A stretch of 58,994 nucleotides of DNA from a virus (IMGVR_UViG_3300045778_000157:1-58994), one strand, 5' to 3'. Shown: positions 23,870 to 47,122, counted from the first letter of the stretch. Program-made: numbers and translations. Notes: generated by a model not told the origin, from the letters alone.

Positions 23870-23939
23870 GGCTGTAACTCCCTGTTCGCGGCCCCTTGGA
23901 AGGCCGATGTAGGGAGTTTAATAACTGTTGCCGCAAGAA

Positions 23940-24116
23940 TCAACGGGTCGATTCGATCTTTATTTCGGTATGCCGCACTATGAAGTCGGCGACGGCCTCC
24001 ACGTCCACCGGAAGGCCGCAGGAAGCCCACAGGCGCAGAGCCTTCATGTAGTGCGGGAGCCACCACGGCATCGTGATGGTGGCCTCAATCCCCGCGTAGT
24101 TGCTCCGGCTCGTCAT
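23940..24116 (-). CDS. Small hypothetical protein
   Basis: 58 aa from MTSRSNY with RBS gaggaa. Confidence 0.45.
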   Translation of the reverse strand: MTSRSNYAGIEATITMPWWLPHYMKALRLWASCGLPVDVEAVADFIVRHTEIKIESTR

Positions 24117-24237
24117 CGTTCCTCGCCTTTCGGGCCTTGCGCTTGCGGACCGCCCGAGCAAGCTTGGCTTCCTTGTGACGCTTCGGGCGGACGACTGCAA
24201 GGCGCCGCTGGTGAATGGGTTTCCAGTTGCCCAAGCC

Positions 24238-24492
24238 TCACCTGTCGAACAGGCGCGGGTCGCCGTTCGGGTTCGAGTTCTCCAGCACATCGGCGCGGGC
24301 CTGTTGCAGCATGACGATCACGGCAAGGGCCTCGTCGGGCGTCAGGGTGTAGCAGCCCTTGAACGCCCCCACGAAGTCGATGGAGCCGCACAGCGTCCCG
24401 CTGGCGTGGAACGGGCCGAACTCCGTCGCGGCGGAGAACGTCCTGGCGTCGTAGAGGCGCGGGCGAAGGTGGACGACTTCCGACATGTTCAA
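24238..24492 (-). CDS. Hypothetical protein
   Basis: 84-aa ORF coupled to the upstream ORF. Confidence 0.55.
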   Translation of the reverse strand: MNMSEVVHLRPRLYDARTFSAATEFGPFHASGTLCGSIDFVGAFKGCYTLTPDEALAVIVMLQQARADVLENSNPNGDPRLFDR

Positions 24493-24653
24493 CGCTCCAG
24501 TGACGCGACGGCGTGGATCAGTTCCTCGTCCACGGCCTCGTGGGCCGCCGTGGCTTCCGTGAATTCGCGGATGCGCCGCTTCATGTCCTCGGTCGCCTGG
24601 CGGACGACATCCGCCTGTTGCGCCTGCTTGCGCGCTTCGAGTTCGTCCGTCAT
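24489..24653 (-). CDS. Small coiled-coil hypothetical protein
   Basis: 54 aa from MTDELEA; ATGA overlap with the methyltransferase. Confidence 0.5.
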   Translation of the reverse strand: MTDELEARKQAQQADVVRQATEDMKRRIREFTEATAAHEAVDEELIHAVASLER

Positions 24654-25966
24654 GCCTTGCCCTTTCCAGCCTTGGCCGTCAGTCGCGCGTTCGGATTGCG
24701 CCGCGCCATCACCTCGACGAAGGTCTCGCCCGTCTCTTCCAACGTGGCAACGCCGCCCGAAAAGTTCTGCCAGCGCGTGGCGATGACGTCGACGAACACA
24801 GGGTCCTTCTCCGCAACCCTTGCGCGGCGCCCGTGCTTCTCGCAGGCGACGAGGGTCGAGCCGCTGCCGCCGAACAGGTCGAGGACGACGGCCCCGCGCT
24901 TCGACGAGTGCAATATCGCGTGTTCCGGCACGGCCACGGGCTTCTCGGTCGGGTGGTCCGTCTCGGCCTGCTTCCTGCCGATCGTCCAGGTGGACAGGGC
25001 GTGGCCCTCGGCGGGGGAGTTGAAGGTGTGCCTGCCGCGAGTGGCGTAGCAGATCAGTTCGTTGTCCCACGTCCAGTGCCGCTTCATGAGGCTCGGCATG
25101 GGGTTCTTCTTCTGCCACACGCAAGCCGAGACGTGCGAGGCCCACGTCTCCATCCACGCCCATATGCTCCCGGCGAGGTGGTGCGAGGTGCACACGTAGA
25201 CCGTTGCGTCGTCGGCGAGGTGCAGCGCGAAGGACTGCTCCACGGAGGCGAAAACGAATCCCTTGTCCCACTCGGACGCGGCGAGGTTCTTGTAGGCCTT
25301 CCGCACGTTCTTCGCCACGAGGTCGTCGCCCGAGGCGTGGTTGTATGGCGGGTCGGTGAACACCATGTCGGCCTTGTCGCCCGCCATGAGGATCGCCACC
25401 GCGCCGACGTCGGTCGAGTCGCAACAGGCGAGGCGGTGGTCGCCCAGTATCCACACGTCGCCGTCGCGCGAGATCGCGCTGTCGCCGGCGGCCGGCGTCT
25501 CGTCCTCGTCGGTCTGGCCTTCCTTGGCCTCGTCCTCGTCGGCGCCGAACAGATCCTTGAGGAAGTCGCCGTCGAGGCCGGTCAGTTCGAGGTCGAACTC
25601 CATGCCCTGCAAATCGGCGAGTTCGAGCTTCAAAAACTCGGTGTTCCAGTCCGAGCCGTTGAGCGCGATGGCGTTGTCGGCGATGACGTAGGCCCGCCGC
25701 TGCGCCTCGCTCCAGCCCCGCGCCACCATGGCGGGAACCGTGGCGATCTTCAGCTTCTTCGCCGCGAGGATGCGCCCGTGGCCGGCGATCAGGGTGTTGT
25801 CCTCGTCCACGAGGATCGGCATCGTCCAGCCGTATTCGAGGATTGACTTGGCGATGAGGTCGATTTGCGCCGGCGTGTGGGTCCGCGCGTTTCTTGCGTA
25901 GGGCAGCATGTCCACGACGCTGCGCCGCTCCACCTTGTCGGCGGGCCAAAGAACCTCATTTCCCAT
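24650..25966 (-). CDS. ParB-like N-domain fused to an N6A/N4C DNA methyltransferase (beta class)
   Basis: PYARNARTH...IAGHGRILAA...YVIADN, then DPPY, HPTEKP and DLFGGSGST. Confidence 0.92.
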   Translation of the reverse strand: MGNEVLWPADKVERRSVVDMLPYARNARTHTPAQIDLIAKSILEYGWTMPILVDEDNTLIAGHGRILAAKKLKIATVPAMVARGWSEAQRRAYVIADNAIALNGSDWNTEFLKLELADLQGMEFDLELTGLDGDFLKDLFGADEDEAKEGQTDEDETPAAGDSAISRDGDVWILGDHRLACCDSTDVGAVAILMAGDKADMVFTDPPYNHASGDDLVAKNVRKAYKNLAASEWDKGFVFASVEQSFALHLADDATVYVCTSHHLAGSIWAWMETWASHVSACVWQKKNPMPSLMKRHWTWDNELICYATRGRHTFNSPAEGHALSTWTIGRKQAETDHPTEKPVAVPEHAILHSSKRGAVVLDLFGGSGSTLVACEKHGRRARVAEKDPVFVDVIATRWQNFSGGVATLEETGETFVEVMARRNPNARLTAKAGKGKA

Positions 25967-26261
25967 GCCAGTCGTCCCTCTTCACGATTTCGGCGATCTT
26001 CTCGAACGACGAGCCGATGCGCTCCACGTGCCGCCTCATGTCACGAAGGTGCTGCCACGCGTTCACGAGGCGGCCGTGGCCCTCCATGTCGCAGATCACC
26101 ACCTCGCGTTCGTGTTCGCCGCGCCCGACGAACAGTTGGGTGGTGCCGCAGGTTTCGCGCAGGAACACGCGCTGAATCTCCCGCCCGTTGCTGTAGATGG
26201 CGACTTCCCGTTCACTCGCCTGCGTCGTCGTCATAGCCGTGGTCTCCATTGAAGCCGTCAT
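25956..26261 (-). CDS. Hypothetical protein
   Basis: ~101-aa ORF coupled to both neighbours. Confidence 0.5.
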   Translation of the reverse strand: MTASMETTAMTTTQASEREVAIYSNGREIQRVFLRETCGTTQLFVGRGEHEREVVICDMEGHGRLVNAWQHLRDMRRHVERIGSSFEKIAEIVKRDDWHGK

Positions 26262-26740
26262 CCCCGCGCACCCATCCGCCGCACCACCCCGCCGTTGTCC
26301 AGCAAGTCCTCCATGAGCCGCTCCGGCGTCAGGCCGCGCCTGGACAGCCGCAGGCCGCACTCTTCGAGGACGCGCCCCGCGTAGAGGCTGCAACAGCCGT
26401 CCGCCCTGTCGGGGAACAGGCCGAGGCCAACGCGGATCGCGTCGAGGTAGCGATAGGCCTTGCCGAGTTCCCGCGTGGCCGTGTTGTCGGCCCAGCCAGT
26501 CCAGCGCCACTCGCCGGAAACCATGTCGAACGGCACGGCGTCGACGATGGGGCGGCGCCGTACCCCGACCCCAGGCACGTCCTCATAGAGGAACGTCCCG
26601 TCGCTCTCCACCACGACGAACCCGACGTGGGAATAGGCCGAGCGCGTCACCACGCGGATGAACTGCGACAGGAGGTCGGTGCCGACGAAGAAAACGACGT
26701 CGCCGGACTGATAGGGTCTGCGGAGGGGCGAACAGAACAT
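26258..26740 (-). CDS. Permuted papain-like NlpC/P60 (YiiX/YebB-like) amidase
   Basis: GDVVFF...YSHVG (His)...LGKAY...CCSLY (Cys)...LTP order; start inferred at MFCSP. Confidence 0.75.
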   Translation of the reverse strand: MFCSPLRRPYQSGDVVFFVGTDLLSQFIRVVTRSAYSHVGFVVVESDGTFLYEDVPGVGVRRRPIVDAVPFDMVSGEWRWTGWADNTATRELGKAYRYLDAIRVGLGLFPDRADGCCSLYAGRVLEECGLRLSRRGLTPERLMEDLLDNGGVVRRMGARG

Positions 26741-26753
26741 GGGCCTTGTTCCT

Positions 26754-27122
26754 TCAGATGGACTGGTCCTTGGCCTTCGGCGGCTGGGCCGGAGCGATGT
26801 GGATGCCGCGCAACATGCGGTCTCCCCGTTCATAGCCCAGCCGCTCCGAGTCGCGAATGCCGCTCTGCCATCCCCAGTAGAGGCCCACGCAACCCATGAA
26901 GGCGAACGTGGCGAAGGCCACCGCCGCCAGCGCGAACCACGTGGCGTCGGACGGCCTCCACGGATGCTTCAAGGGCTTGGCGTAGCCCCTCCACTCGGCG
27001 ACCTCGTCCGTGGGTTCCGGCAGGTCGTCCAGGGCCTCGCGCTCCAGCCGTTCGCGCAGCTTGGCGCGGTTGTATCCGGCCACCGAGTCCTCGTCGCCGT
27101 CGTCTGGCATGTCCTGATCCAT
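26754..27122 (-). CDS. Hypothetical membrane protein
   Basis: 122 aa with one TM helix (WFALAAVAFATFAFMGCVGLYW). Confidence 0.6.
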   Translation of the reverse strand: MDQDMPDDGDEDSVAGYNRAKLRERLEREALDDLPEPTDEVAEWRGYAKPLKHPWRPSDATWFALAAVAFATFAFMGCVGLYWGWQSGIRDSERLGYERGDRMLRGIHIAPAQPPKAKDQSI

Positions 27123-27183
27123 CCCGCCCGTCCCTGACCTTGCGATACGTCCGATAACGCTCCCTTATCGGACAACAGTTTCG

Positions 27184-28578
27184 TCACTTCACGCGGTTGT
27201 GCAGAGCGGTCGGATAGCACCCCGACAACGCCTTCACGTCCTCCGCGAAGGCGTTGCGTTCCTCGGCGAGGGTCTGCACCTCCTTCACGAGGTCGGCCAA
27301 AGTGGCGCACTTGCCGTTCCGCCACCACTTGCCGTTCCGCCACCCCTTGCCGAACAGCGCGGCCTCAATGTCGCGGCGGAAGGCGTAGTTAACATCCTGC
27401 GCCACGCCGTCCACGATGAACGCCTTGATCTTGGCGATGGCGGCATTACTGACGGTTTCGACGTCGTTCACCGTCTCCATGCCGAGCGCGGCGCGCAGTT
27501 CAACCCACGCCTGATAGAACTTGCCGCCCTTCAACTTCATTGCGTCCCAATTGAAATGGGAGAAATAGCGGCCTGGCGTCAAAGGTTCGCCAGCACTATC
27601 CTCCCACCACTTGTTGAACTTGGCGATATCCTCGGCGGACGCCGCGCCAATCTCAACCGTGATGCTCTGCAACTCGCGCTCGGCCTTCAACCGCTTCATT
27701 ACGGCCACTGACGCGTCGAACACGTTTGCCCCGACCTTCCACTCGTTCGAGTCAGCGAACTCGGTGCAGAGGCATTCCTGAAGCTTCTCGAAGCCCTTCG
27801 AGTAATAGTCCTCGTTCGCCTTGAAGCTTTGCAGTGTGGACAGCGCGTTGACGAGGATGGGCGTCTCGGTGCTGTTCAAGCCCCTGTCGCGCAGCCACTT
27901 CCCGATTGCCGTGGTCTGCATGGAGAGGTTCGGAACCCTCTCATACTCTTCGGCGATCCGCAGCACCTGTCCCACCACGTCGTCCTCGCGCTCGTCCTCG
28001 CGCTGATCCACGTAGGATTGGAGACGCGACGTCACGCCTTCGAGTTTGTTACGGACGCCGGCGAGTTCCTGGAACAGTTCGCGCACCACGCGCACGGCGC
28101 CGGATCCGAGTTCCTCGCCCGCCTTGATCCGGCCGCGCAGTTCGTAGCCGATGGCCGTCAGGTCGTTCGCCGCGCCGTCGAACAGCGAGTGGAAGTGGAT
28201 CTTGAGGCGGTTGGCCTCTGTGAGTTCCGTCCGCAGTTCCACCCTCAGGCTGGTCTCGCTTCTCGCGATGGCGTCGAGGCGGGCATTCTCGGCCTTCAGT
28301 TCGGCAAGGACGCGCAGCGCGTGGTCTCCAATCGCCTCGCCGCGCTTCGGGCCACGGTCCTTGAAGCCCATGGCAAGCGTCCAGGAGAGCCGCTGCAAGG
28401 CCTCGTCGGGGCTTCCCTCAACGCCCTGTTCGACGCAGCGGCCTTCGAGTTCCGTCACCACGTCGCGCACGTGCTTGATAATGTCCAGGCGGTTGAGGTC
28501 CGCGTCGCCGATATGCTCGCACAACGCGCCGCGCAAATTCTCGAAAAACTGACGGTCGATCTTCATGCGATTAGCCAT
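27184..28578 (-). CDS. Large coiled-coil hypothetical protein
   Basis: 464-aa ORF with RBS ggaggg; visibly more A/T-ending codons than its neighbours. Confidence 0.75.
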   Translation of the reverse strand: MANRMKIDRQFFENLRGALCEHIGDADLNRLDIIKHVRDVVTELEGRCVEQGVEGSPDEALQRLSWTLAMGFKDRGPKRGEAIGDHALRVLAELKAENARLDAIARSETSLRVELRTELTEANRLKIHFHSLFDGAANDLTAIGYELRGRIKAGEELGSGAVRVVRELFQELAGVRNKLEGVTSRLQSYVDQREDEREDDVVGQVLRIAEEYERVPNLSMQTTAIGKWLRDRGLNSTETPILVNALSTLQSFKANEDYYSKGFEKLQECLCTEFADSNEWKVGANVFDASVAVMKRLKAERELQSITVEIGAASAEDIAKFNKWWEDSAGEPLTPGRYFSHFNWDAMKLKGGKFYQAWVELRAALGMETVNDVETVSNAAIAKIKAFIVDGVAQDVNYAFRRDIEAALFGKGWRNGKWWRNGKCATLADLVKEVQTLAEERNAFAEDVKALSGCYPTALHNRVK

Positions 28579-28645
28579 TTTGCCCTCCTGATTTCAACAA
28601 AACTGCAACCAATTCACGGGATAAATCCCAAAGCCCTGCTACGGA

Positions 28646-28924
28646 TCAGGCGACTTCGTTGCCCTCTTCGAGCCTCTTGCGAAAAGCGGCCACTTTATCG
28701 ACCTCCGCCTGAAGAATTCCGACGTCGTTGCTCATCATCCTCCCCACCGCCATTTTCGCGGCGATGAACCCGCTCCGCACCCCGTCCTTCGACAGGGCGA
28801 GTTGTTCTTCCGTGGCGTCGGGGTTGAACGCAAAGGCGCGCCTGTCGAGTTCGCCGGAGTTCTGCACCTCGTTGAGCCTGTCGAGGACGGACAGGATGAG
28901 TTCGTTGCGCTGCCTGTCGTTCAT
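28646..28924 (-). CDS. Hypothetical protein
   Basis: 92 aa from MNDRQRN; ATGA-coupled. Confidence 0.55.
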   Translation of the reverse strand: MNDRQRNELILSVLDRLNEVQNSGELDRRAFAFNPDATEEQLALSKDGVRSGFIAAKMAVGRMMSNDVGILQAEVDKVAAFRKRLEEGNEVA

Positions 28925-29367
28925 GCCAGTTTTCCTTTCAACGGATTGTCCACCGCGATTTCCTTCAGGGCTGATTCGATGGCCGCGAACACCCCGCGCC
29001 TGTCGAGGGCTTCGAGAAGCTTCGGCCCGCCGAGCCTGTCGAACAGGTGCGCCACGTGCATCGAGCGCACGTGTTCCTCGCCTTTGTAGACGACGCGCTC
29101 GGTCGCCTCCACGACGGGCATCCCGACCGCCAGAGCCACGGGAGGGTGCGAGGAACCGATGACGGTAAGCTTGAGGGACGCGCCCTGGACGAGCGCGATA
29201 ATGTCCGCCTCGTCCGCCGTCCACGCGCTGGTGAAGGCGTGGAGGCCGCTCTGGCCCTGATAGGGCTCGATCCTGACGGGGAGGCCCACGCACTTGCCCT
29301 GGGACTGATTCCAGTTCGGCGGCGCGCCGAGAACGGTGGTGTGGCCCTCGATCATTCCGCTCCGCAT
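28921..29367 (-). CDS. Conserved phage hypothetical protein
   Basis: LGAPPNW...CVGLPV...SAW...HPPV pattern; start inferred. Confidence 0.65.
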   Translation of the reverse strand: MRSGMIEGHTTVLGAPPNWNQSQGKCVGLPVRIEPYQGQSGLHAFTSAWTADEADIIALVQGASLKLTVIGSSHPPVALAVGMPVVEATERVVYKGEEHVRSMHVAHLFDRLGGPKLLEALDRRGVFAAIESALKEIAVDNPLKGKLA

Positions 29368-29479
29368 CTGTCCGCCTCCCGCGTGGCCTTGGCGAGGCGC
29401 CAAGCCTGTTTCACGATTTCCTTGTGGGTGTCGAACCGCGCCGCAACCTCCAACGCCGTGCCGGAGCCATCGACCCTGA

Positions 29480-29782
29480 TTATCGCCCGCCTCCGAGTTT
29501 CCGCGTCACGCACTGCTTCGACACGCCGATCTCGGCGGCGATCTTGGCGTGGGACAGGCCCGCCGCCCGCAACTCCCGCGCCTTGTCCCAATCCGCCTTG
29601 AACCTGTAGGAGTTGCCGACGCGCTCCGGCCTCGGGCCGAGGGCGATGCCGCGCACCGCGCCACGCACCGCCGTGATGGAGACGGCGAGCCGTTCGGCGA
29701 TGACGCGAAGGACGATGCCCTCGGTCCTCATCCGCCTCGCCTCTTCGTGATCGAACCGTTTCTCCACCGCGACGTCCTCCAT
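29480..29782 (-). CDS. Double HTH DNA-binding protein
   Basis: LRVIAERLAVSITAV and SHAKIAAEIGVSKQCV; start inferred. Confidence 0.65.
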   Translation of the reverse strand: MEDVAVEKRFDHEEARRMRTEGIVLRVIAERLAVSITAVRGAVRGIALGPRPERVGNSYRFKADWDKARELRAAGLSHAKIAAEIGVSKQCVTRKLGGGR

Positions 29783-29860
29783 GCCGCACCATAGGCACGG
29801 TGATTCGAACGGGTCGATCCACTTATTGAAAAAAGGTTGCCACGATTCTTCAAATAGGGC

Positions 29861-29889
29861 TTGCGAACGTCTAATATTAGGCGTATGGT
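29861..29889 (+). promoter_or_regulatory. Sigma70-like promoter with palindromic operator
   Basis: TTGCGA-N17-TATGGT; the spacer holds GTCTAATATTAGGC. Confidence 0.7.
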
Positions 29890-29937
29890 TAACAAATCGG
29901 GGGTTGCCAAGAACCGCCGCACCAAGGGAACCAGCCA

Positions 29938-30444
29938 ATGTCCACCTTCTACGTCCTCCCCACCCTCACCGTCTCCAAGGACGGAACCTTCGTCTCCCCC
30001 ATCGCGCTCGTCGTCGAAGCCGCGATCAAGGACGGCCTCGAAAAGGTCGCCAAGAACGCCAAGGCCGCTGCCGAGGCGATGAACTCCGAGACGGCGCGCC
30101 GCACCGGAGCCATCCTGATCGCCCTGTCCGCCGCCAAGTCCACCCTCTCCCTCTCGCCCGCCGACGACGAACTGAAGACCATCGTGTCCGTCCTCGAACA
30201 GGCCAAACAGGCGAACGCCGCGAAGTATTTCGACGCCGCCGCCGTCCTGTTCGTCGTCATCGCGCCAGTCGCGGTGTGGTGGCCCGAACTCGTCCTCTAC
30301 CCAGTCGGGATCGCCGCCCTCGCCGCCGTCGGCCTCGGCTCCATCCTCCTGCCGTTCGCGCTGCGCCACCCGTTCTTCTCCTACGACATGGGCCGAAGGG
30401 CTCTCAGGGGCCGCGCCAGGAAGGTGCGCGCCAACAGGGGCTGA
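29938..30444 (+). CDS. Hypothetical membrane protein (early)
   Basis: 168 aa with two C-terminal TM helices; RBS agggaa. Confidence 0.7.
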   Translation: MSTFYVLPTLTVSKDGTFVSPIALVVEAAIKDGLEKVAKNAKAAAEAMNSETARRTGAILIALSAAKSTLSLSPADDELKTIVSVLEQAKQANAAKYFDAAAVLFVVIAPVAVWWPELVLYPVGIAALAAVGLGSILLPFALRHPFFSYDMGRRALRGRARKVRANRG

Positions 30445-30470
30445 CAACGCCGCACCCGTCCACGACGCTT

Positions 30471-30500
30471 CAGGGCCGTTCACAGCGGCCCTTTTCTTTC
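30471..30500 (+). terminator. Intrinsic terminator
   Basis: agggccg-ttcacag-cggccct followed by TTTCTTT. Confidence 0.7.
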
Positions 30501-30705
30501 GCCCTTCCCGTCCTGCACCCGACGTCGAACGCCCCATCCACGGGCCGTCCTGCGCGAAAATAAACGCCATCCCCGTCCATCGCCTCGCCGCGAAAATCCG
30601 ATCCAGCTTCCTACGTTAGTCCACCCCGTGTCCTTCCGTGAAACCCACGTTTCACAAGCCTTGCCGCCGTTGCGAAAAATCTTCGCCTCCATGGTTAAAA
30701 AACCG

Positions 30706-30739
30706 TTGACACTCCCCGAAACAACGCCTAATTTTATAC
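30706..30739 (+). promoter_or_regulatory. Sigma70-like promoter with operator variant
   Basis: TTGACA-N17-TAATTT; GCCTAATTTTATAC overlaps the -10. Confidence 0.65.
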
Positions 30740-30786
30740 CATCGACGAAGATTCCACGTCGTGATTCTTGCACAAGGGAACCCGCC

Positions 30787-31011
30787 ATGTCCGCCATCCA
30801 CGTCACCTTCGAAACCAAGGTCGGGGAGCGCACCGTGCCCGCCGACTCCGCCCTCGCCCTCGCCATGGCCGTCGCCTCGCGCCACGCCCCCGCCGTCGTC
30901 GAGGTGACGGTCGGCGGCAATCCGCTGTCCGCCCTCGACCTGTCGTTCTTCCTGCTGCTGGCCCAGTCCGGCGCCGCCGCCAAGGCCGCGAAGATCCTCG
31001 CCGCCTACTGA
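30787..31011 (+). CDS. Small hypothetical protein
   Basis: 74 aa from MSAIHV with RBS agggaa. Confidence 0.6.
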   Translation: MSAIHVTFETKVGERTVPADSALALAMAVASRHAPAVVEVTVGGNPLSALDLSFFLLLAQSGAAAKAAKILAAY

Positions 31012-31064
31012 CGCCAACGGGGAGGCTCCAAGGCCTCCCCACCCGCCCCAAGGGAACAACCGCC

Positions 31065-36717: not shown

Positions 36718-36730
36718 AGGGAAAACGGAC

Positions 36731-37419: not shown

Positions 37420-37448
37420 TTGCAATAGTCTAATATTAGGCGTAACGT
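37420..37448 (+). promoter_or_regulatory. Sigma70-like promoter with palindromic operator
   Basis: TTGCAA-N17-TAACGT; GTCTAATATTAGGCGTA is identical to 29869-29885. Confidence 0.7.
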
Positions 37449-37493
37449 TCGAATCACGGCCTTCCAAGGGGCCGCAACACAGGGAACTCAGTC

Positions 37494-37838: not shown

Positions 37839-37859
37839 GGCGCACGGCCAGGAACGACG

Positions 37860-37895
37860 AAACCCCCGAGGCGGATTCCTCGGGGGTTTTTCTTT
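37860..37895 (+). terminator. Intrinsic terminator
   Basis: aaacccccgagg-cggatt-cctcgggggttt plus a T tract. Confidence 0.8.
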
Positions 37896-37923
37896 GCCTT
37901 GCGCTCTCGGTTATGACGCTGCC

Positions 37924-38077
37924 TTGCGGCGAAACTTGGCGGGGGGCGAGACCAGAGTATCGGCCCCCCGCGTGGATCGTCAGGATTCCAAGCCGACGAT
38001 CCGGCGGCTTCGGCGAAAGGGAACATCGCAGAAGCCCGCCCGTGAACCCTTATCTCACTGCCGATCGCCTAAAGCAA
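37924..38077 (+). ncRNA. Candidate multi-stem structured RNA upstream of the recombinase
   Basis: Closing stem plus four internal hairpins and AAGGG/CCCUU loop-loop complementarity, folded by eye. Confidence 0.5.
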
Positions 38078-38173
38078 CCCTTGTCCTGCAAACAAGGTTT
38101 CCAAAAAGTTGCGGGGGGCTGGAGGAAGGCGGAATGTCGGGATATCGTAATGGACTAACGCAGGTCGAAAACC

Positions 38174-39894: not shown

Positions 39895-40313
39895 TTGGTG
39901 TTCCCTTCAAGCTGCTCCACCTTGGCGTGGAGGATCTCAATATCGGCTTCCCGTGCGGAGATTTCAAGCAACGCCTTGCCGTTGGCGATCCGCGCCCGCC
40001 CGAGAAGGGCGCGCAGTTCGCGAATGTCGCGCCGCAGCGCGGAGTTATCGTTGCGGGCCTTCTCCAGCGCGTCCGCCGCGCCCGCCTCGCGGAACACCGG
40101 GTCGCGGAACCGCTCGTATTTGCCCTCGGCGCGGTCGAACCGCACCCCGAAGGCCTCCATGATGCGGCGCGAGACCCCGATCTGCCCGTTCACGAAGCGC
40201 GAGATCTGCGCCTCCTTCACGTCGGTGATGAGGGCAAGCTGACGCTGCCCGCCGTGCCTCTCCGCCACGTCGGCGACGTGCTTGCGGAACTCGGTCTGCG
40301 ACATGAAGGCCAT
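39891..40313 (-). CDS. HTH plus coiled-coil protein
   Basis: GQRQLALITDVKEAQISRFVNG; start inferred at MAFMSQ. Confidence 0.65.
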   Translation of the reverse strand: MAFMSQTEFRKHVADVAERHGGQRQLALITDVKEAQISRFVNGQIGVSRRIMEAFGVRFDRAEGKYERFRDPVFREAGAADALEKARNDNSALRRDIRELRALLGRARIANGKALLEISAREADIEILHAKVEQLEGNTK

Positions 40314-42037
40314 CACTTGCCTCCCCTCTGCGGGATCCAGCGACCGTCCGAGGTCTTGGTCCACTTCGGCTTGTCCTTCTTCGCCTTGATCGCGCCGGCG
40401 AACTGCTGCGTCCGCGACACGCTGAACGTGCGGCACTCCGTGTCGAAGTCGAACTCCACCACGCCTGGGACGCCGCAGTTCTCCTGATCGCGGATCTTCT
40501 TCACGAACACCCCCGAAACCTTGTCCACCGTCACGTCGCCGAGGCGCGTGATGATGATGCCGAAGTCCGCCTTGTTCTGAAAAGCCGCCGTGTCCGCCAT
40601 GTCGTAGAGGGTGATATCCTCCGGCGCCTTCTCCGCGCCCGCCTTGGTCGGGTGCCCGACGAGGATCACCATGACGTTCATGCGCCGGCCCCACTTCTTC
40701 AGGGCGAGGATGGCGCGGTTGGCGTATTCCGTCATCGTCTCCTTCGCGCTCTTGCGATGCTCGATCTCGTTCCATGGGTCGACGAGGGCCACCTTGATCC
40801 CGTGCCTGATCACCGCCACGTCGAGGCGCGACAGGAGCCAGTCGAAGTCGGCCTCCTCGTCCGCGTCGTCGGACGGGGCGACGAACACGAAATGGTCGCG
40901 GGTGAAGTCCCACGCCATCTGCTTCATTTCGTCGTTCCACCGCGCCCGCGGCTCTCCGAGAGCCGTCGATCCGATGATGCCCTTGAGGATGTGCATGGAC
41001 ATTTCGCGGCTGAAGACGCCGATCTTCCACCCCTGTTCGAGCGCAAGCTGCGACACGAACTGCGTCGTCCACGCGCTCTTGCCGGCCCCCGCCAGTCCGG
41101 TGACGATGACCAGCGCGCCGAGATACGGCTTGAAGTGCGCGTCCATTTCCTTCCACCCCGACGACACGCATTCGGGCGGTTCCTCGTCCGGCATTTCGTC
41201 GAGCGTGTAGACTCCCGAAATGGGGTAGGGCCTGGCGACCTTCAGCATCGCGTCGATGCCCTCCCACCCGCGCTTCTCGAACACCTCGTTGGCGTCCTTG
41301 GCGAGGCGCATTTCGCCCGTCTTTCCGTCCTTCGCCCACACGTCCTTCGGCCACGCCACGAAGCCGCAGCGCACCCGCCCGAGGCGGCGCACCAGTTCCG
41401 CGCCGAGGCGGCGTCCCGGGGCGTCGTTGTCCGTCATGATGACGATGCGCTTGACGTTGGCGAGGCGGTCCCACGACGCGGACACGAACTTGAACGCCTT
41501 GTCGTTCTCCACGTCGATATCGTCCGCCGTGTCCGGCACGACCACCTCGTTGCCGTTCTCGTCCACCCCGGGCAGGTTCGCGCCGTTCGGCACCGACACG
41601 CACGGCCACCCCAGTTGCTTGAGGGTGAGGCAGTCGATCTCTCCCTCCACGATGGTGAGCGGCTTGGCGCCGGAGAGGACGTCGGGATGTTCGAGGTCCG
41701 CCGAGTTGAAGAACGCCGGCTTGGGCTTGGCGCGCTGGGTGAACTTCTTCCCCTTCTCGCGGTACTTCTCGGCGACGACCGCGCCCCTGTCGATGACGGG
41801 GAACACCAGCACCTTGCCGTTCGCGTCGGGGACGACCTCGAACGTCTCTTTGGGGCCGTTCTCCGTCTCCTTAAAGATGCCAGTTCCCTGCCACCTTCCG
41901 CTGAAGAGACCCGTATCCGCCGCCGTTGCGGCCTCGATCCCCCGCGTTTCCAGCCACGCGAGGTGCATTTCGGAAATCGCCTTGGCGCCCGTCGCCTTTT
42001 TCGTGCTGTTCATAGTATTTCCCTTCTTCGTAGCCAC
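40313..42037 (-). CDS. TOPRIM primase-SF4 helicase (T7 gp4/Twinkle-like) lacking a Zn finger
   Basis: VEGEIDCL, SVPNGA, DNDAPG, KDANE, TGLAGAGKS, VDPWN, HPTK; start may be 42013. Confidence 0.9.
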   Translation of the reverse strand: MATKKGNTMNSTKKATGAKAISEMHLAWLETRGIEAATAADTGLFSGRWQGTGIFKETENGPKETFEVVPDANGKVLVFPVIDRGAVVAEKYREKGKKFTQRAKPKPAFFNSADLEHPDVLSGAKPLTIVEGEIDCLTLKQLGWPCVSVPNGANLPGVDENGNEVVVPDTADDIDVENDKAFKFVSASWDRLANVKRIVIMTDNDAPGRRLGAELVRRLGRVRCGFVAWPKDVWAKDGKTGEMRLAKDANEVFEKRGWEGIDAMLKVARPYPISGVYTLDEMPDEEPPECVSSGWKEMDAHFKPYLGALVIVTGLAGAGKSAWTTQFVSQLALEQGWKIGVFSREMSMHILKGIIGSTALGEPRARWNDEMKQMAWDFTRDHFVFVAPSDDADEEADFDWLLSRLDVAVIRHGIKVALVDPWNEIEHRKSAKETMTEYANRAILALKKWGRRMNVMVILVGHPTKAGAEKAPEDITLYDMADTAAFQNKADFGIIITRLGDVTVDKVSGVFVKKIRDQENCGVPGVVEFDFDTECRTFSVSRTQQFAGAIKAKKDKPKWTKTSDGRWIPQRGGK

Positions 42038-42230
42038 AGTGGTGGCAATGGCAGACCACGCCTTCGCGGTCGATCTTCACCGCCAGAACCTTGGTGTTCT
42101 GGTTGTGTTTCTTGCGCGAGGCGGAACACGTCGGGCAGGTCGTCCGGTATTCCCCCTCGCTCGTCGACCGCATCTGCCGCGTGTCGATGCCGAGTTCGTT
42201 CAACAGTTCGGAGGCCGAGCGGATTCGCAT
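41871..42230 (-). CDS. Stand-alone primase zinc-binding domain
   Basis: CPTC...CHHCG; overlaps the primase start in another frame. Confidence 0.75.
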   Translation of the reverse strand: MRIRSASELLNELGIDTRQMRSTSEGEYRTTCPTCSASRKKHNQNTKVLAVKIDREGVVCHCHHCGYEEGKYYEQHEKGDGRQGDFRNAPRVAGNAGDRGRNGGGYGSLQRKVAGNWHL

Positions 42231-42240
42231 GGCGGTCCTC

Positions 42241-43149
42241 CTAGCGTCCGGCCGTGGGGAGGCTCGTCTTGCCCGCCCATGAGGACTGAGCGGGCCGCGT
42301 CCCGCCGCTCTTCGAGCCGTTCTGCCCCGTGGCGAGGACGGCCTCGCGCTGCTTCTTCACCACGCCCATGCACCACCCGAGCGGGTCGGCCTTGCCCTGC
42401 CTGTGGGCGTCCGCCACGATGCCGAGCAAGGCGCCCGCGTGGCTGTCTCCGCCCAGCAGCTTGAGCATCTGCCCGATGGACGAGCGCACGTTGGCGTCCG
42501 ACTTCCTACCGTCCTCCGAGAGGTAGGCGCGGCACTTGTCGCCGAACAGACGCTCCTTCGGGTCGATGCCCATCAGCCCGTCCGCCTCGGGGGAAGCCTT
42601 CGGCTGTTCCTGCGCCGAAGGGACGGCCTGGGCCTTCGCCTCCAACGCGTGAACGGGCGAAGCCGAGCCCGCCTCGTCCGCTTGCGGCGGGGCCGTATCT
42701 TTAGATACGGAATAAGGTGACTCTGACTCTGACTCTGAAACGGGCGCGCGATGCATTGCGTCCGCATCGGCGGTATCGTTGTTTTTCAACGACTTACCCC
42801 AGCGTTTCGCCGCGTTATCAGCCGCCTTTACGGCCTTTATCGAGGCCTTATCGGCCTCCTTTCCCTGTCTTTCATTGACGAAACCCGCCTCGGTGAGGAC
42901 GAAGAAGCGGGGCAGGATCTTGTCCAGCAGGGTGTGGGCCTTCCTGTGGTGGAAGTCGGCGATCTTGCTCTGCAACAGGCGGGTGAGGACGGTGCGGTCG
43001 GCGGGCAGGACGCAGCCGACGAGGTGCCAGGCGCACATGAGAAGCACCATGTAGACGCCGTGTTCCTCCGCCGTCAGGTCGAACGTGTCGGCCAGATAGT
43101 CGGTCGGATAGAGCGGCATCCACGCCATTTTCGTGGATTTGTTCGACAT
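42241..43149 (-). CDS. Replication initiator (DUF1376/YdaU-like)
   Basis: WMPLYPTDYLADTFDLTAEEHGVYMVLL...AAKRW; internal repeats typical of an embedded origin. Confidence 0.85.
   Translation of the reverse strand: MSNKSTKMAWMPLYPTDYLADTFDLTAEEHGVYMVLLMCAWHLVGCVLPADRTVLTRLLQSKIADFHHRKAHTLLDKILPRFFVLTEAGFVNERQGKEADKASIKAVKAADNAAKRWGKSLKNNDTADADAMHRAPVSESESESPYSVSKDTAPPQADEAGSASPVHALEAKAQAVPSAQEQPKASPEADGLMGIDPKERLFGDKCRAYLSEDGRKSDANVRSSIGQMLKLLGGDSHAGALLGIVADAHRQGKADPLGWCMGVVKKQREAVLATGQNGSKSGGTRPAQSSWAGKTSLPTAGR
42719..42875. repeat. Putative replication origin within the initiator gene
   Basis: 3x GACTC, TGCGTCCGCAT, IHF-like TTTCAACGACTTA and 11-bp phased tatc/tttc repeats. Confidence 0.6.
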
Positions 43150-43225
43150 TTCTTGGAACTCCCTTGGCGCGCCCCACGGGGGAATCGGGCGCGGTGTCTA
43201 AAAATTGATCGAATGGCGGAACGTG

Positions 43226-43684
43226 TCAACGACCATTTTTCGGTTTCGAAGAATCTTGATATCCGTTCTTGTGCTCCCGCCGCAGATCGTCGAGGTGCAA
43301 CATGCTGGCGACCTGTCCCGACCCCCGCGTCAGTTCCGTGGCCGTCTCGTCCGCGTCCATCCGCTCGTCCACGTAGAAGTCCACGTCGCGGATCCCCGAC
43401 GTCGAGTAGCCCTTGAGGCGCGAGTAGTGGATCCGCACCCCGAACGGCGCCACCGCCTCCCTCGCGTAGTCCGAGAACTTCGGGAGTTCCTTCTGGCGGA
43501 TGCCCAGGGCCTTCACCATCGCGAGGCTCGGCACGTCGAGCGGCCAGTGCTCCGCGAACACGGCAAGCATCCGCCATCCGCACGTCGCGAGGCGGACGAA
43601 CGCCCCGTCGATCCTGCAATCGCGGCGGTGTTCGTCCTCGAACAGTTCGATCACGGCCCCTGGGCGGCTGCTGTCGATGCTCAC
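43226..43684 (-). CDS. Hypothetical protein (possible winged helix)
   Basis: 152 aa; ATGA-coupled to the GcrA-like gene. Confidence 0.55.
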   Translation of the reverse strand: MSIDSSRPGAVIELFEDEHRRDCRIDGAFVRLATCGWRMLAVFAEHWPLDVPSLAMVKALGIRQKELPKFSDYAREAVAPFGVRIHYSRLKGYSTSGIRDVDFYVDERMDADETATELTRGSGQVASMLHLDDLRREHKNGYQDSSKPKNGR

Positions 43685-44049
43685 TTGGCCTTTCCCGTGT
43701 AGGCGATGCGGTGGTGGCTGTCGCAGTAATGCCTACCCCTGCCCGTCGTCCCGCCGCAATAGCCGAAGTCCTCCGCCCCGACGTCGCCGAGCGGCCACAT
43801 GCACGTCATGCCGAACACGGTGGATTCGATGGCGAGGGTGCCGTCGCGGGCCTCGAACAGTTCGAGGACGCGCCTGGGGAGGTTCGTCTCGACCCTGCGC
43901 GTCTTCGAGCCGTAGCGTTCGGCGAGGATGCCCGCCGCGTGGAGGGACGACACCCGACCGATCACGGCGGAGCGCGACAGGCCGACCTTCTCCGAAATGG
44001 CGGTGGCCGAAGCCCCGTCCTCGAACAGGTGGATTATTTCCTCTTCCAC
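43681..44049 (-). CDS. gcrA: GcrA-like cell-cycle regulator
   Basis: GASATAISEKVGLSRSAVIGRV N-domain; TCMWPLGD...FGYCG...YCDSHHRIAY C-domain. Confidence 0.85.
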   Translation of the reverse strand: MEEEIIHLFEDGASATAISEKVGLSRSAVIGRVSSLHAAGILAERYGSKTRRVETNLPRRVLELFEARDGTLAIESTVFGMTCMWPLGDVGAEDFGYCGGTTGRGRHYCDSHHRIAYTGKAK

Positions 44050-44086
44050 GTCGCTTCTGCCCCGCCGTTTTTTGACGGACTCCGGG

Positions 44087-44626
44087 CTAGAACTCCCAAC
44101 GAAAGGGCTCTGCCCCCTCTATCGTGTTCGGCGCGGAGATCACCACCACGCCCGCCGACTCGAACACGATGGGGCCGGAACCGGATTCTTCCAAGCCCTC
44201 GTCCTCGAAGGCCGGAGAGGCGCCCATCACCCCGCTCTCGCGCAGGATCTCCGGCTCGTCGTAGTCGGCGAAGGCCTCCACCATCGGCGAACCCTCGAAC
44301 GCGTCGTCGGGGTGCGTCTCCCCCGCTTCGATGGGCTTCGGAGCCTCGGTGAGGACGGCCGGCGACAGCTTCGGCCTGGGCAGCGTGAACCTGCCGAGCA
44401 TCGGCCACGCCACCCCCTCGGGCCAGCGTCCCGCGAAGTCCGTCACCACCGCGTCGTAGGTCTTCAGCGTGAGTCCGGCCTTCGAGTTGGGCAGGATCTT
44501 CTTGCAGAACTTCGCGTCGTTCACGCAGGAGCGGCGGCACACCGTGGCTGGCGACAGCTTCGACCACGCGGAATATCGCGAAACGATTTCAAACAGGTGC
44601 GCCTTGGCTGCGGCTTCCAACATCAT
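44087..44626 (-). CDS. Cro-like regulator of alphaproteobacterial phage type
   Basis: SPATVCRRSCVND...LTLKTYDAVVTDFAGRWPEGVAWP; heads the replication operon. Confidence 0.6.
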   Translation of the reverse strand: MMLEAAAKAHLFEIVSRYSAWSKLSPATVCRRSCVNDAKFCKKILPNSKAGLTLKTYDAVVTDFAGRWPEGVAWPMLGRFTLPRPKLSPAVLTEAPKPIEAGETHPDDAFEGSPMVEAFADYDEPEILRESGVMGASPAFEDEGLEESGSGPIVFESAGVVVISAPNTIEGAEPFRWEF

Positions 44627-44718
44627 CGAACCCCGAGAACTTTGTTAACGATTCTTGGATAGGGTGAGATTTCGCCCTCTCGCAATGAGGTTGGTGTGGG
44701 AAGGTTCCCAAGAACCGC

Positions 44719-44747
44719 TTGACGCGTTCTTCAAATCGATCCATAAC
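44719..44747 (+). promoter_or_regulatory. Sigma70-like promoter
   Basis: TTGACG-N17-CATAAC. Confidence 0.6.
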
Positions 44748-44792
44748 AACAGTTATGAAACCGCTCCAAGGCGGTTTAGAAGGGAGCATCAC

Positions 44793-46082
44793 ATGAAAAT
44801 CCTGTCGATGAAGGCCGAGAACTTCAAGCGTTTGCGGGCCGTGGAGATCACGCCCAAGTCCGCCGTGGTGGACGTGACGGGCCGCAACGCCCAGGGCAAG
44901 ACCTCGGTGCTGGACGCCATCCTCGCCGCGCTCGGCGGAGAGGGCGAGATCCAGCGCAAGCCGATCCGCGCCGGGGAGGAACAGGCCGTCATCCGCCTCG
45001 ACCTCGGCGACGTCGTGGTCACCCGCACCTTCAAGGCGAAGGAGGACGGCGACTTCACCACCTCGCTGAAGGTCGACGCGACCAACGGCGCCCGCTTCAC
45101 CTCGCCGCAGCACCTGCTGGACAGCCTCGTGGGGCCGCTGTCGTTCGACCCCCTCGCCTTCACCCGCCTCTCCGCCAAGGAACAGGCGGACGGCCTCAAG
45201 CGGCTCGTCAAGGGCTTCGACTTCGCCGCCGCCGACAAGGCGGACAAGGACGACTACGCCAAGCGCACCGACCTCAACCGCGAGGCGAAGCGGCTGCGCT
45301 CGTCCTATTCCTCCATCGTCGTTCCGGCGGACGCTCCCGCCGAGGCGGTTGACGAATCCGCGCTCGTCGCCGAACTCGAAGGCGCGGCCAAGTTCAACGG
45401 CGAACTGGACAAGCGCAAGGCGCGCCGCGTCGAGGCCAACAACCAGATCCGCGCATGGCGCCAGGACGCCGGAAACTTCAACGAGGAAGCCGACAACCTC
45501 CGCATCCGCATCGCCGAACTCGAAGAAGCGGCGAACGCCAACCGCAAGGCGGCGGACGACCTCCAAGACAAGCTGAACGCCGCCGCGCCGCTGCCGGAGG
45601 CGGTGGACGTGTCGCGGGTGGCGCAGATACTCAACGGCGCCCGCGCCGCCAACGCGGCCTTCGCCAAGTCGCAGGAGCGCGGCGAACTCGGCGCACAGGC
45701 CCACAGGGCCGAGACGGACGCGGAAGCCCTGACCAGGGCCATGGAGTCCCGCGCCAAGGCCAAGGCCGAGGCGATCAAGGCGGCGAAGCTGCCGGTGGAA
45801 GGCCTGTCGTTCGACGCGGACGGACTCACTCTCAACGGACTGCCGTTCGAACAGGCCTCCGGCGCCGAACAGCTGCGCGCCTCCATCGCCATCGCGGCCG
45901 CGCAGAACTCCAGGCTGCGGGTGCTGCGCGTGAAGGACGGGAGCCTGTTGGACGCGGACGGCAAGCGCGTCCTCATGCAGTTCGCCCAGGCGAACGACTG
46001 GCAGATCTGGATCGAATCGGTGGACGCGTCCGGCAAGATCGGCTTCGTCATCGAGGACGGCGCCGTGGCTTCGGCGAACTGA
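44793..46082 (+). CDS. SMC/Rad50-like ABC ATPase
   Basis: MKILSMKAENFK, GRNAQGKTS, coiled coil, QASGAE, KDGSLLD. Confidence 0.88.
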   Translation: MKILSMKAENFKRLRAVEITPKSAVVDVTGRNAQGKTSVLDAILAALGGEGEIQRKPIRAGEEQAVIRLDLGDVVVTRTFKAKEDGDFTTSLKVDATNGARFTSPQHLLDSLVGPLSFDPLAFTRLSAKEQADGLKRLVKGFDFAAADKADKDDYAKRTDLNREAKRLRSSYSSIVVPADAPAEAVDESALVAELEGAAKFNGELDKRKARRVEANNQIRAWRQDAGNFNEEADNLRIRIAELEEAANANRKAADDLQDKLNAAAPLPEAVDVSRVAQILNGARAANAAFAKSQERGELGAQAHRAETDAEALTRAMESRAKAKAEAIKAAKLPVEGLSFDADGLTLNGLPFEQASGAEQLRASIAIAAAQNSRLRVLRVKDGSLLDADGKRVLMQFAQANDWQIWIESVDASGKIGFVIEDGAVASAN

Positions 46083-46093
46083 TGGAGGGGAGC

Positions 46094-46348
46094 ATGAAGA
46101 GCGATCTCGTCGATCTGGAACTGGCGGTCCACCACGAAACCGAAAAGGCCGTCCACCACGAAACCGAAAAGGCCGTCCTCGTCTCGGAGACGGGCGACAG
46201 GGCCAAGGCCGTGTGGCTCCCGCTTCAGGCGTGTGAGGTGGAATACAAGCCGATCACCGGCTGCATGGTCGGAGGGCGCAAGCGTCCGTTCCGCCTTGCC
46301 ACGGTGACCATGCGCGAGTCCCTCGCCGTGGAAAAGGGACTCGCATAA
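46094..46348 (+). CDS. Conserved phage hypothetical protein with a 24-bp tandem duplication
   Basis: (VHHETEKA)x2...AVWLPL...AVEKGLA. Confidence 0.7.
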   Translation: MKSDLVDLELAVHHETEKAVHHETEKAVLVSETGDRAKAVWLPLQACEVEYKPITGCMVGGRKRPFRLATVTMRESLAVEKGLA

Positions 46349-46349
46349 A

Positions 46350-46412
46350 GGCAGAAACCTAGGGGGAGCAATCCCCCGATGGTCGCGCCGTCACGCGGCG
46401 CCCGTCGAGGCC
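46350..46412 (+). ncRNA. Type II hammerhead-like element, degenerate copy
   Basis: GAAACC...GGUC, stem I, CCGUCGA-GGCC; core deviates at U4, A6 and pair 10.1-11.1. Confidence 0.4.
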
Positions 46413-46445
46413 AAGCACGTCGGACACAAGCAAGGGGAGCCTATC

Positions 46446-46961
46446 ATGGGCATGTCGGGACTTCAGAACTGCAAACAGGGCGTCTACAACCTCTCCGAAG
46501 GCTCGGAGTGGGCGGACGTCGCGCTGGACGACGCCGCCAACGCCATCGCCGCCAAGTGGAAGGAGATCCACGACTTCGGCGGACTGGACGACGACGAGCG
46601 GCGCATCATGGTCCGCTTCGCCGAACTGTTCCACATGCCGCAGCACGTGTGGGGCCGCATCGAATGGCACTACGAGTTCGACGCGGGCGACTTCCTGTTC
46701 GCCGTGCCGCTCAACGACCGCACCCGCGACGTGACGTTCGCCGACGTCTCCCGCGTCGAGGTGCTGGACGATGAAGGGGAGACCATCGGCTACGTGGCCG
46801 GCGACCTGTTCCGCGCCGTCCAGGCCGCTCCGAGCGGCTGCGACAGGCTCAAGGAACTCGCCTCGTCCCTGCTGACCTTCCACAACACGGGATTCGACAG
46901 CGGGAAAGAGGCCGGCGCGAAGGATCTGCGTTGTAAGCTGCGGAGCCTCCTGGATATCTAG
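46446..46961 (+). CDS. Hypothetical protein
   Basis: 171-aa ORF with RBS. Confidence 0.7.
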   Translation: MGMSGLQNCKQGVYNLSEGSEWADVALDDAANAIAAKWKEIHDFGGLDDDERRIMVRFAELFHMPQHVWGRIEWHYEFDAGDFLFAVPLNDRTRDVTFADVSRVEVLDDEGETIGYVAGDLFRAVQAAPSGCDRLKELASSLLTFHNTGFDSGKEAGAKDLRCKLRSLLDI

Positions 46962-46987
46962 CTATCCGCAACATCGATGGCGCGAAA

Positions 46988-47016
46988 CCGAGGCGGGGTC
47001 GTCCCGCCTCTTTTTA
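46988..47016 (+). terminator. Intrinsic terminator
   Basis: gaggcggg-gtcgt-cccgcctc-TTTTT. Confidence 0.8.
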
Positions 47017-47050
47017 TTCAAGAATCGTTGTCATTGTCCTTAAATAACTG

Positions 47051-47079
47051 TTGACGGTTTCTCCGATCAGATTCATAAA
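47051..47079 (+). promoter_or_regulatory. Sigma70-like promoter
   Basis: TTGACG-N17-CATAAA. Confidence 0.6.
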
Positions 47080-47122
47080 TGGACCGTCGCTGCCAAGAGC
47101 GACGCAGCCAAAGGGAACCCAC

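Follow-up and report, generated by a model that had tools for sequence, protein, structure and literature searches.

Seven leader hairpins with a shared CCAAG loop form an unnamed family in an orphan phage genome

The viral genome entry IMGVR_UViG_3300045778_000157, which was analysed over its whole length of 58,994 nt (hereafter the window; G+C content 66 %), contains seven short stem-loops, h1 to h7, that present the same CCAAG-containing hexaloop on different stems directly in front of the Shine–Dalgarno sequences of phage genes. For these seven canonical members the family is real and beyond chance, it is absent from every control set searched, and it constitutes an unnamed leader hairpin family in a single orphan phage. 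A preliminary description of this DNA had listed six stem-loops with a KCCAAG hexaloop, all of which were found with the positions and stems given there; the seventh canonical member, h7, as well as one look-alike within a coding sequence, emerged from a scan for KCCAAG between complementary arms (Table 1). The family had been called phage-wide, but the seven sites all lie within 23.9–47.1 kb. The record has an estimated completeness of 66 % (CheckV) and lacks terminal repeats.

The loop reads K-C-C-A-A-G in all seven members (TCCAAG or GCCAAG), five of its bases being invariant, and is carried by stems of 6–8 pairs in which a pyrimidine–purine pair always closes the loop, including a U–G closing pair in h1 and h4. 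Each hairpin is in the sense orientation relative to its gene (7/7, none antisense) and is followed by a C/A-rich spacer of 2–9 nt, the sequence A(A)GGGA(A/G), located 3–10 nt downstream of the hairpin, and, after a further 5–9 nt, an ATG, and thus the proximity to an AGGGA-type ribosome-binding site reported for the first six holds for h7 as well. The 3′ tails of h1 to h7 are, in order, cgaac, cacc, acccgcccc, caacac, ag, cagcc and cagcttg. None contains a U-tract, none of the seven was returned by terminator scans, and on this ground their identity as intrinsic terminators was rejected. The hairpin is part of the minimum-energy fold of six of the seven leaders, with AGGGA mostly unpaired. 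The 16S rRNA 3′ tail of one Methylobacterium genome, which may not be that of the host, reads CACCTCCTTTCT, and AAGGGA is therefore an ordinary Shine–Dalgarno sequence in that alphaproteobacterium.

The evidence for the family lies in the combination of loop, stem and position. The word KCCAAG occurs at 151 sites, compared with 53 ± 7 in shuffled sequences, but 107 of these are in sense coding sequence, mostly as GCC-AAG codon pairs, and because this codon pair is common the loop word alone proves nothing. When at least five contiguous pairs are required, seven KCCAAG hairpins are found against a mean of 0.47 and a maximum of 3 in 300 dinucleotide shuffles; with at least six pairs there are six, against a mean of 0.17 and a maximum of 2. 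The comparison of the genome with shuffled controls that the preliminary description had recommended thus places the KCCAAG hairpins far above the shuffles. Among all hexamers, TCCAAG ranks first for being flanked by stems (5 of 27 occurrences, binomial P of 7.9e-6). Hexaloop hairpins number 1220 genome-wide, of which 22 sit 8–40 nt upstream of a sense start, and six of these 22 carry KCCAAG; conversely, six of the seven KCCAAG hairpins fall in this zone (hypergeometric P of 1.1e-10), h2 having been left out of this positional test owing to its internal mismatch. The look-alike at 29969–29984 fits chance, as about 1.6 such cases are expected from 151 sites and a 1 % stem rate. An equal frequency of the hairpins in coding sequence or on the antisense strand had been named as an outcome that would speak against the family, and it was not observed: all seven are sense, and the only in-gene look-alike is at chance level.

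The stems themselves are preserved as structures rather than as sequences. In an alignment of the seven 22-nt cores, 91.8 % of stem cells are paired, with double-sided changes at all seven pairs, and in none of 500 shuffles were the observed values reached for paired cells, for cells with changes on both sides, for additional pair types or for the covariation score, although the number of pairs with double-sided changes (seven) was itself reached in 34 of the 500. Sliding the alignment register lowers pairing to 43–59 %. A covariance model scores the members at 23.0–26.1 bits, the next match in the genome reaching 19.2 bits.

The preliminary description had five hairpins beginning 5–10 nt past the −10 box of a sigma70-like promoter, and this is as claimed, h7 adding a sixth, with all of these promoters being predictions. 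P4 was read by eye and lies below the threshold of the promoter scan, while the promoter of h7 is one of only two consensus promoter matches within 23000–42900. The distance from the loop to the −10 box is variable (12–17 nt). Moreover, the identical stems of h1 and h4 follow different promoters, and P2 and P4, which have promoter and operator sequences in common, precede different stems. As these stem and promoter types mix independently, the elements are not simple copies of one promoter cassette, and the mosaic pattern argues for selection on the element rather than simple duplication. Four of the seven hairpin-led units close at strong intrinsic terminators (t1, t2, t4 and t5). The transcripts had also been described as early; this label is unproven and, in the case of h1, questionable, since h1 heads a small unit directly upstream of a cos-like region and the terminase genes.

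Table 1. Window coordinates of the hairpins, predicted promoters, terminators and genes discussed in the text (ORF, open reading frame)
Feature	Position	Strand	Sequence or description	Covariance model (bits)	Context
h1	23889–23906	−	CGGCCT TCCAAG GGGCCG	23.6	5 nt, AGGGAG, then ATG at 23869, opening a 79-aa ORF
h2	29898–29919	+	CGGGGGTT GCCAAG AACCGCCG, one G–G mismatch	23.5	4 nt, AAGGGAA, then ATG at 29938, opening a 168-aa ORF
h3	31019–31040	+	GGGGAGGC TCCAAG GCCTCCCC	26.1	Intercistronic; stop of 74-aa ORF 7 nt upstream, AAGGGAA 9 nt downstream, ATG of SNF2-type helicase at 31065
h4	37457–37474	+	CGGCCT TCCAAG GGGCCG	24.7	6 nt, AGGGAA, then ATG at 37494, opening a 114-aa acidic ORFan
h5	44758–44777	+	AAACCGC TCCAAG GCGGTTT	25.3	2 nt, AAGGGAG, then ATG at 44793, opening an SbcC-like AAA ATPase
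h6	47085–47104	+	CGTCGCT GCCAAG AGCGACG	25.0	5 nt, AAAGGGAA, then ATG at 47123, opening a 78-aa ORF followed by 252-aa, Rad52-like and SSB-like genes
h7	39915–39932	−	CTCCAC GCCAAG GTGGAG	23.0	Inside the last codons (3′ end) of a 140-aa ORF; 7 nt, AAGGGAA, then ATG at 39894 (221-aa ORF)
Look-alike	29969–29984	+	CCGTC TCCAAG GACGG	13.3	Within the 168-aa coding sequence, 31 nt past its ATG
Weaker variant	42083–42102	−	ACCAAG loop		In or across coding sequence; left out of family count
Weaker variant	48140–48155	+	ACCAAG or CCCAAG loop		In or across coding sequence; left out of family count
Weaker variant	44703–44716	+	ACCAAG or CCCAAG loop		Left out of family count
P1 (predicted)	23915–23943	−	TTGATT-17-TAAACT		−10 ends 8 nt before h1
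P2 (predicted)	29861–29889	+	TTGCGA-17-TATGGT, spacer palindrome CTAATATTAG		−10 ends 8 nt before h2
P4 (predicted)	37420–37448	+	TTGCAA-17-TAACGT, P2-type spacer operator		−10 ends 8 nt before h4
P5 (predicted)	44719–44747	+	TTGACG-17-CATAAC		−10 ends 10 nt before h5
P6 (predicted)	47051–47079	+	TTGACG-17-CATAAA		−10 ends 5 nt before h6
h7 promoter (internal, predicted)	39939–39967	−	TTGAAA-17-GATATT		−10 ends 6 nt before h7
t1	23578–23605	−	Stem, then UUUUUCUU; z −2.7		Closes P1–h1–79 aa; beyond it ~550 nt non-coding with repeats, then terS, terL and portal
t2	30472–30492	+			Closes P2–h2–168 aa; beyond it another promoter, then 74-aa ORF, h3 and helicase
t4	37859–37890	+	z −5.9		Closes P4–h4–114 aa; integrase gene beyond
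t5	46990–47010	+			Closes P5–h5–ATPase…171 aa; P6–h6 beyond
Terminase small and large subunits, portal	19.5–23.0 kb	−
ParB–methyltransferase fusion	24650–25966
Second methyltransferase	33586–35220
Integrase	38174–39265
GcrA-like regulator, 122 aa	43681–44049	−	GcrA cell-cycle-regulator domain PF07750, E 3.5e-17

The proposal that a fixed loop on freely varying stems marks an RNA recognition element is borne out by the sense orientation of all seven members, the covariation of their stems, the U–G pair, the predicted 5′ ends and the absence from controls. There is about an even chance that the CCAAG hairpins function in cis as 5′-leader RNA stem-loops that present a common loop to one sequence-specific factor. 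Since six of the seven start approximately 0–3 nt from the predicted transcript 5′ end, they would cap the transcript and shield it from 5′-end-dependent decay, which is known to be blocked by 5′-terminal stem-loops in Escherichia coli leaders. Such a role is inapplicable to h3 without RNA processing, because h3 is promoterless. A sequence-specific reader is suggested by the fact that the stems have fully diverged and five loop bases are fixed over six unrelated stems, while capping needs no given loop. The reader would most likely be one RNA-binding protein of phage or host origin, through which the units would belong to a single regulon. As the first-ranked outcome, an elongation or antitermination factor would load on the nascent leader, following the logic of boxB/N or LoaP; as the second, the same bound factor would control translation. 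A role in readthrough is favoured by the short terminator-bounded units beyond which terminase and late genes, the integrase or the next operon are located, whereas a translational operator is favoured by the constant distance to the Shine–Dalgarno sequence, h3 and h7 included. The preliminary description had left antitermination, stabilization and a translational switch as alternatives, and a choice among them is not supported, as neither an N-, Q- or NusG-like gene nor a boxA-like element was found.

A readthrough or elongation role is accordingly put forward only tentatively. Its fullest form would be an undescribed regulon, in which a loop-specific factor outside the N, Q and NusG types loads within the initial 20 nt of six or more transcripts and at one intercistronic site, so that transcription of short units bounded by terminators would continue into the late and terminase genes and the integrase; this is conceivable, though rather doubtful. 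With similar reserve, the regulon might represent a switch of the boxB kind that arose independently in a temperate phage of the Alphaproteobacteria.

Several observations weigh against the reading as leader stem-loops with one common factor, the readthrough role included. Forty proteins were scanned against PHROGs or Pfam and none belongs to N, Q, other antiterminator or RNA-binding families; the NusG N-terminal domain PF02357 gave no match in six frames of a record estimated to be 66 % complete, although the same search was positive in 11 of 14 reference genomes. The enterobacterial boxA consensus CGCTCTTTA had five matches with at most one mismatch, compared with 6.0 expected, and none of them was in a hairpin-bearing leader. 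No promoter-like site lies upstream of h3. Readthrough is not required everywhere, because t2 and t5 are followed by promoters of their own and the unit led by h7 showed no terminator. The identity of the h1 and h4 stems reduces the independent stems to six, and cross-genome conservation would require relatives, of which none above ~50–55 % protein identity was found in the collections searched. Finally, several assembled RNA-library contigs start upstream of the predicted P4 unit start, three of them by 25–75 nt. Parts of the region occur in three metatranscriptome runs and one DNA run, and the RNA-run material, which consists of low-depth assembled contigs, is silent on starts, strand and level; nothing was drawn from it either way.

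Candidate readers were sought inside and outside the phage. Proteins of the N family are small and evolve rapidly. One candidate, a 49-aa ORF at 24085–24234 (−) located between the methyltransferase operon and P1, contains 17 lysine or arginine residues (35 %), has a third-codon-position G+C fraction (GC3) of 0.72, below that of other genes, and gave no family match; it possibly encodes a small nucleic-acid-binding peptide, or is no gene. A second candidate, a 215-aa ORF at 36731–37378, has a basic N-terminus; its look-alikes in the ESM Atlas remained below 0.8, and its model is poor. No counterpart in this phage matched the NusG-like protein of Rhizobium phage RHph_TM3_3_3. Pairing of the loop with 16S rRNA is unlikely, because CTTGG is absent from the one Methylobacterium 16S rRNA examined, which may not be that of the host, and a stand-by Shine–Dalgarno function of the loop was discarded, since only AAGG (5/7) could pair with the 16S tail, leaving the invariant CC unexplained. 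An antisense loop is an unlikely reader as well, since hairpins with a CTTGG loop occur solely as the opposite strands of the members themselves. The stems are too short for an RNase III site, and the arms are not conserved as they would be in a REP- or MITE-type repeat.

Among the alternatives to a common loop-specific factor acting on the nascent leader, a translational operator would have a late or lysogeny-specific protein bind the CCAAG loop inside the 30S footprint and switch all seven genes together, much as T4 RegA, Mu Com and the RNA-phage coat proteins act on their targets. It would account for the AGGGA-type Shine–Dalgarno sequence adjoining every hairpin, promoterless h3 and in-ORF h7 included, and for the competing fold of the h4 leader, in which the 3′ arm pairs with codons 2–3 and encloses the start region. 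Nevertheless, the Shine–Dalgarno sequence and AUG lie outside the hairpin and are free in six of the seven folds, the leaders are only ~40 nt long, so that closeness to the Shine–Dalgarno sequence follows from closeness to the 5′ end, approximately nine other phage genes carry the same type of Shine–Dalgarno sequence without a hairpin, and no candidate repressor was recognised; this explanation is considered unlikely. A plain 5′ stabilizer and ribosome-binding-site insulator without a trans partner, which would just block decay from the 5′ end and prevent upstream RNA from pairing with the ribosome site, its loop retained by common descent or folding preference, is judged distinctly unlikely. 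Six hairpins beginning at predicted +1 to +3 fit such a function, as do the four terminator-ended units, whose mRNAs would be structured at both ends, and two further promoters followed by 5′ hairpins with unrelated loops (30743–30761 and 43168–43193). The latter two suggest that capping is a general design in this phage, but they also show it to be independent of loop identity, and the change of every stem position with five loop bases fixed in all seven members is difficult to reconcile with the absence of selection on the loop. In addition, to our knowledge the CCAAG hexaloop is not among the extra-stable tetraloop types.

Six of the hairpins adjoin promoters, and the phage encodes several helix–turn–helix proteins, a GcrA-like regulator and DNA methyltransferases, which would suit a DNA-level site where a bound protein or cruciform extrusion involves the first transcribed bases, with CCAAG as the recognised DNA spacer. 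This is very improbable given the variable distance of 12–17 nt between loop and −10 box, the lack of a promoter at h3, an orientation that follows the gene in 7/7 cases and a T–G pair in h1 and h4 that is mismatched on the other strand; proteins that bind duplex DNA recognise conserved arms, whereas here the arms are arbitrary and only the 6-bp spacer is fixed. An artefact of chance or composition in a GC-rich genome with frequent GCC-AAG (Ala-Lys) could draw on the threefold excess of the loop word over shuffled expectation, mostly in sense coding sequence, and on the chance-level hairpin at 29969–29984, but for the seven canonical members it is refuted by the shuffles and positional tests, and its probability is practically nil.

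A family of loop-presenting leader RNAs has its closest parallel in the lambdoid nut sites, which likewise comprise a short leader or intercistronic hairpin whose loop, rather than stem, carries the specificity, and which occur in several copies per phage. They follow early promoters and precede intrinsic terminators, an arrangement that the present hairpins may share. The boxB of phage lambda, read by the arginine-rich motif of N, has a GNRA-like pentaloop (or a phi21-type loop), whereas the hairpins described here carry KCCAAG, lack a boxA-like element and an N-like gene among the 40 scanned proteins, and are present in seven copies at the extreme 5′ end, tight to the Shine–Dalgarno sequence, in a phage of alphaproteobacterial type. 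Stabilizers of the ompA type, which protect against RppH and RNase E, are not known to need a particular loop, in contrast to the fixed loop of the present family, which also includes an intercistronic member. The put elements of HK022 are also cis-acting RNAs just past early promoters, in two copies with covarying stems, but each is a two-stem element of ~65–70 nt that acts without protein, and the present element is a single hairpin of 18–22 nt. According to the LoaP report, this NusG paralog requires a small leader hairpin with a defined loop for readthrough of downstream intrinsic terminators in the dfn and mln operons (PMC12691694); as described there, that system combines a UNCG tetraloop with an operon-encoded NusG paralog, in contrast to KCCAAG and no NusG N-terminal domain here. 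In Cluster K mycobacteriophages, SAS and ESAS are described as repeated phage-specific motifs that are absent from the host and lie in one orientation just upstream of the starts of some non-structural genes (PMC3203893). There, SAS consists of 13 bp of conserved linear sequence, the Shine–Dalgarno sequence included, and ESAS has conserved 17-bp arms around a variable spacer, RNA pairing being without support according to its authors (PMC3203893); the reverse applies to the CCAAG hairpins, whose arms vary at every pair and pair up, while the spacer, i.e. the loop, is fixed. The family resembles known loop-specific leader hairpins in its behaviour, yet belongs to none of the nut/boxB, LoaP-type, put, SAS/ESAS or terminator classes.

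The preliminary description had not recognised the hairpins as a named family, which agrees with a whole-genome Rfam scan in which nothing reached the gathering score; a relaxed search of 29780–31120 (E up to 1) gave only four sub-threshold matches, none on h2 or h3. Literature searches on the loop words and 'hexaloop' returned unrelated papers only. In 80 IMG/VR loci around homologues of the ATPase (484 kb) seven NCCAAG hairpins with a stem of at least 5 pairs were found, and in 80 bacterial or metagenome-assembled genome (MAG) loci (1.35 Mb) 22, giving a density of ~1.5 per 100 kb in related loci versus ~17 per 100 kb in this phage. None of the hairpins in these 160 loci, related at ~50 % protein identity, precedes a Shine–Dalgarno–start arrangement in the inspected tails, and no recurrent hairpin or loop was present in the 70 nt upstream of the ATPase homologues (73 of the 80 IMG/VR loci read) nor any repeated loop family upstream of starts in the first 50 kb of RHph_TM3_3_3. 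Across five genomes of Alphaproteobacteria with a total of 26.8 Mb, at least four matches to the covariance model reached 23 bits, a lower bound, as 150 first-look candidates were scored per genome. The linear motif TCCAAGG...AGGGA...ATG had at least 121 matches in 120 IMG/VR loci, with no stem of 5 or more pairs among the matches listed; in this phage all four of its matches have one. The h1/h4 18-mer and the 17-mer operator of P2 and P4 each had two unrelated chance matches in IMG/VR.

Loop-specific leader hairpins allow phages such as lambda to reprogram host transcription, and the tethering of N to boxB has become a standard tool; nearly all of those known to us are enterobacterial or from Firmicutes. 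The seven-copy family brings a new loop into an alphaproteobacterial setting of the GcrA/CcrM type. With one loop on six unrelated stems, it constitutes a natural mutagenesis series that defines what a partner must read and offers a ready bait. Control of readthrough by the partner, if true, would account for the coordination of late and integration genes in a phage made up of many small promoter–terminator units; if the hairpins are only stabilizers, they would still provide a small 5′ leader module that can be transferred to GC-rich hosts.

The phage itself is apparently temperate and alphaproteobacterial. Besides the genes in Table 1, a SNF2-type helicase, a primase/helicase, an SbcC-like AAA ATPase and a Rad52-like gene were recognised, along with two DNA methyltransferases, one of which is fused to ParB. 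The GcrA domain protein together with the ParB–methyltransferase fusion and the second methyltransferase points to a host with a CcrM/GcrA system; GANTC sites are not enriched genome-wide (185 observed, 183 expected). The closest relatives share only ~50–55 % protein identity and are Rhizobium phages by terminase (best TerL identity 55 %), while those of the ATPase are prophages of Methylobacterium, Methylorubrum, a Rhodospirillaceae MAG and Terricaulis. Used alone to query IMG/VR, the ATPase had no match, its best non-self protein being 54 % identical; the SNF2 helicase had none among metagenome contigs (best relative ~40 % identical), the 114-aa protein matches itself alone, and megablast of 29000–49000 against phages gave one 144-nt match only.

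Further features were noted around the predicted promoters. A 17-mer, GTCTAATATTAGGCGTA, is common to the spacers of P2 and P4 (29869–29885 and 37428–37444, +); it contains the palindrome CTAATATTAG and looks like an operator at which one repressor might control two small promoter–gene–terminator units; the ORFs concerned encode a membrane-like 168-aa and an acidic 114-aa protein. A second shared word, AACAGTTAT, in or beside P1, P5 and P6 (23920–23928, −; 44750–44758, +; 47043–47051, + and inverted), possibly represents a second operator class. Two promoters precede hairpins without CCAAG: TTGACA-17-TAATTT, with its −10 ending at 30734, lies before the hairpin at 30743–30761 (+; CGACG aagattcca CGTCG, loop AAGATTCCA), and TTGACA-17-AATTTT, with its −10 ending at 43201 (−), before that at 43168–43193 (−; CGCGCCC gattcccccgtg GGGCGCG, loop GATTCCCCCGTG). 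Their loops of 9 and 12 nt both contain GATTCC and may constitute a second, smaller loop class that carries a GANTC site. The promoter whose −10 ends at 35245 has no hairpin.

The non-coding stretch 23010–23560 between t1 and terS contains the 15-mer GCAATGCGTCCGCAT, a self-inverted repeat, three times and nowhere else in the genome, together with clustered CCTATC/TATCG words, and is likely a cos/pac or terminase-binding region. GGTT(N)CAAGAA(CC) words recur at 430–445 (−; CGGTT CAAG AACCG, upstream of the gene at 28–393) and, in the cos-like region, at 23505–23520 (−; GGTTCCCAAGAA); they resemble h2 (GGTT GCCAAG AACC) and the variant at 44703–44716. The ~340 nt between t2 and the 74-aa gene (30445–30786) hold no convincing ORF, GC3 being low in all frames, and contain the minus-strand hairpin TTGTGAAAC gtgg GTTTCACGG. 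A small ORF at 42010–42230 (−), within which the ACCAAG-loop variant lies, encodes a CxxC...CxxC pattern that by eye is a primase-type zinc finger, and its ATGA end overlaps the beginning of the gene for the primase/helicase; a separate gene thus seems to encode the zinc-binding domain. The proteins encoded at 39891–40313 (−) and 36115–36717 (+) each combine a weak YdaS/Cro-like helix–turn–helix N-terminus with a coiled-coil-like stretch and may be paralogous regulators.

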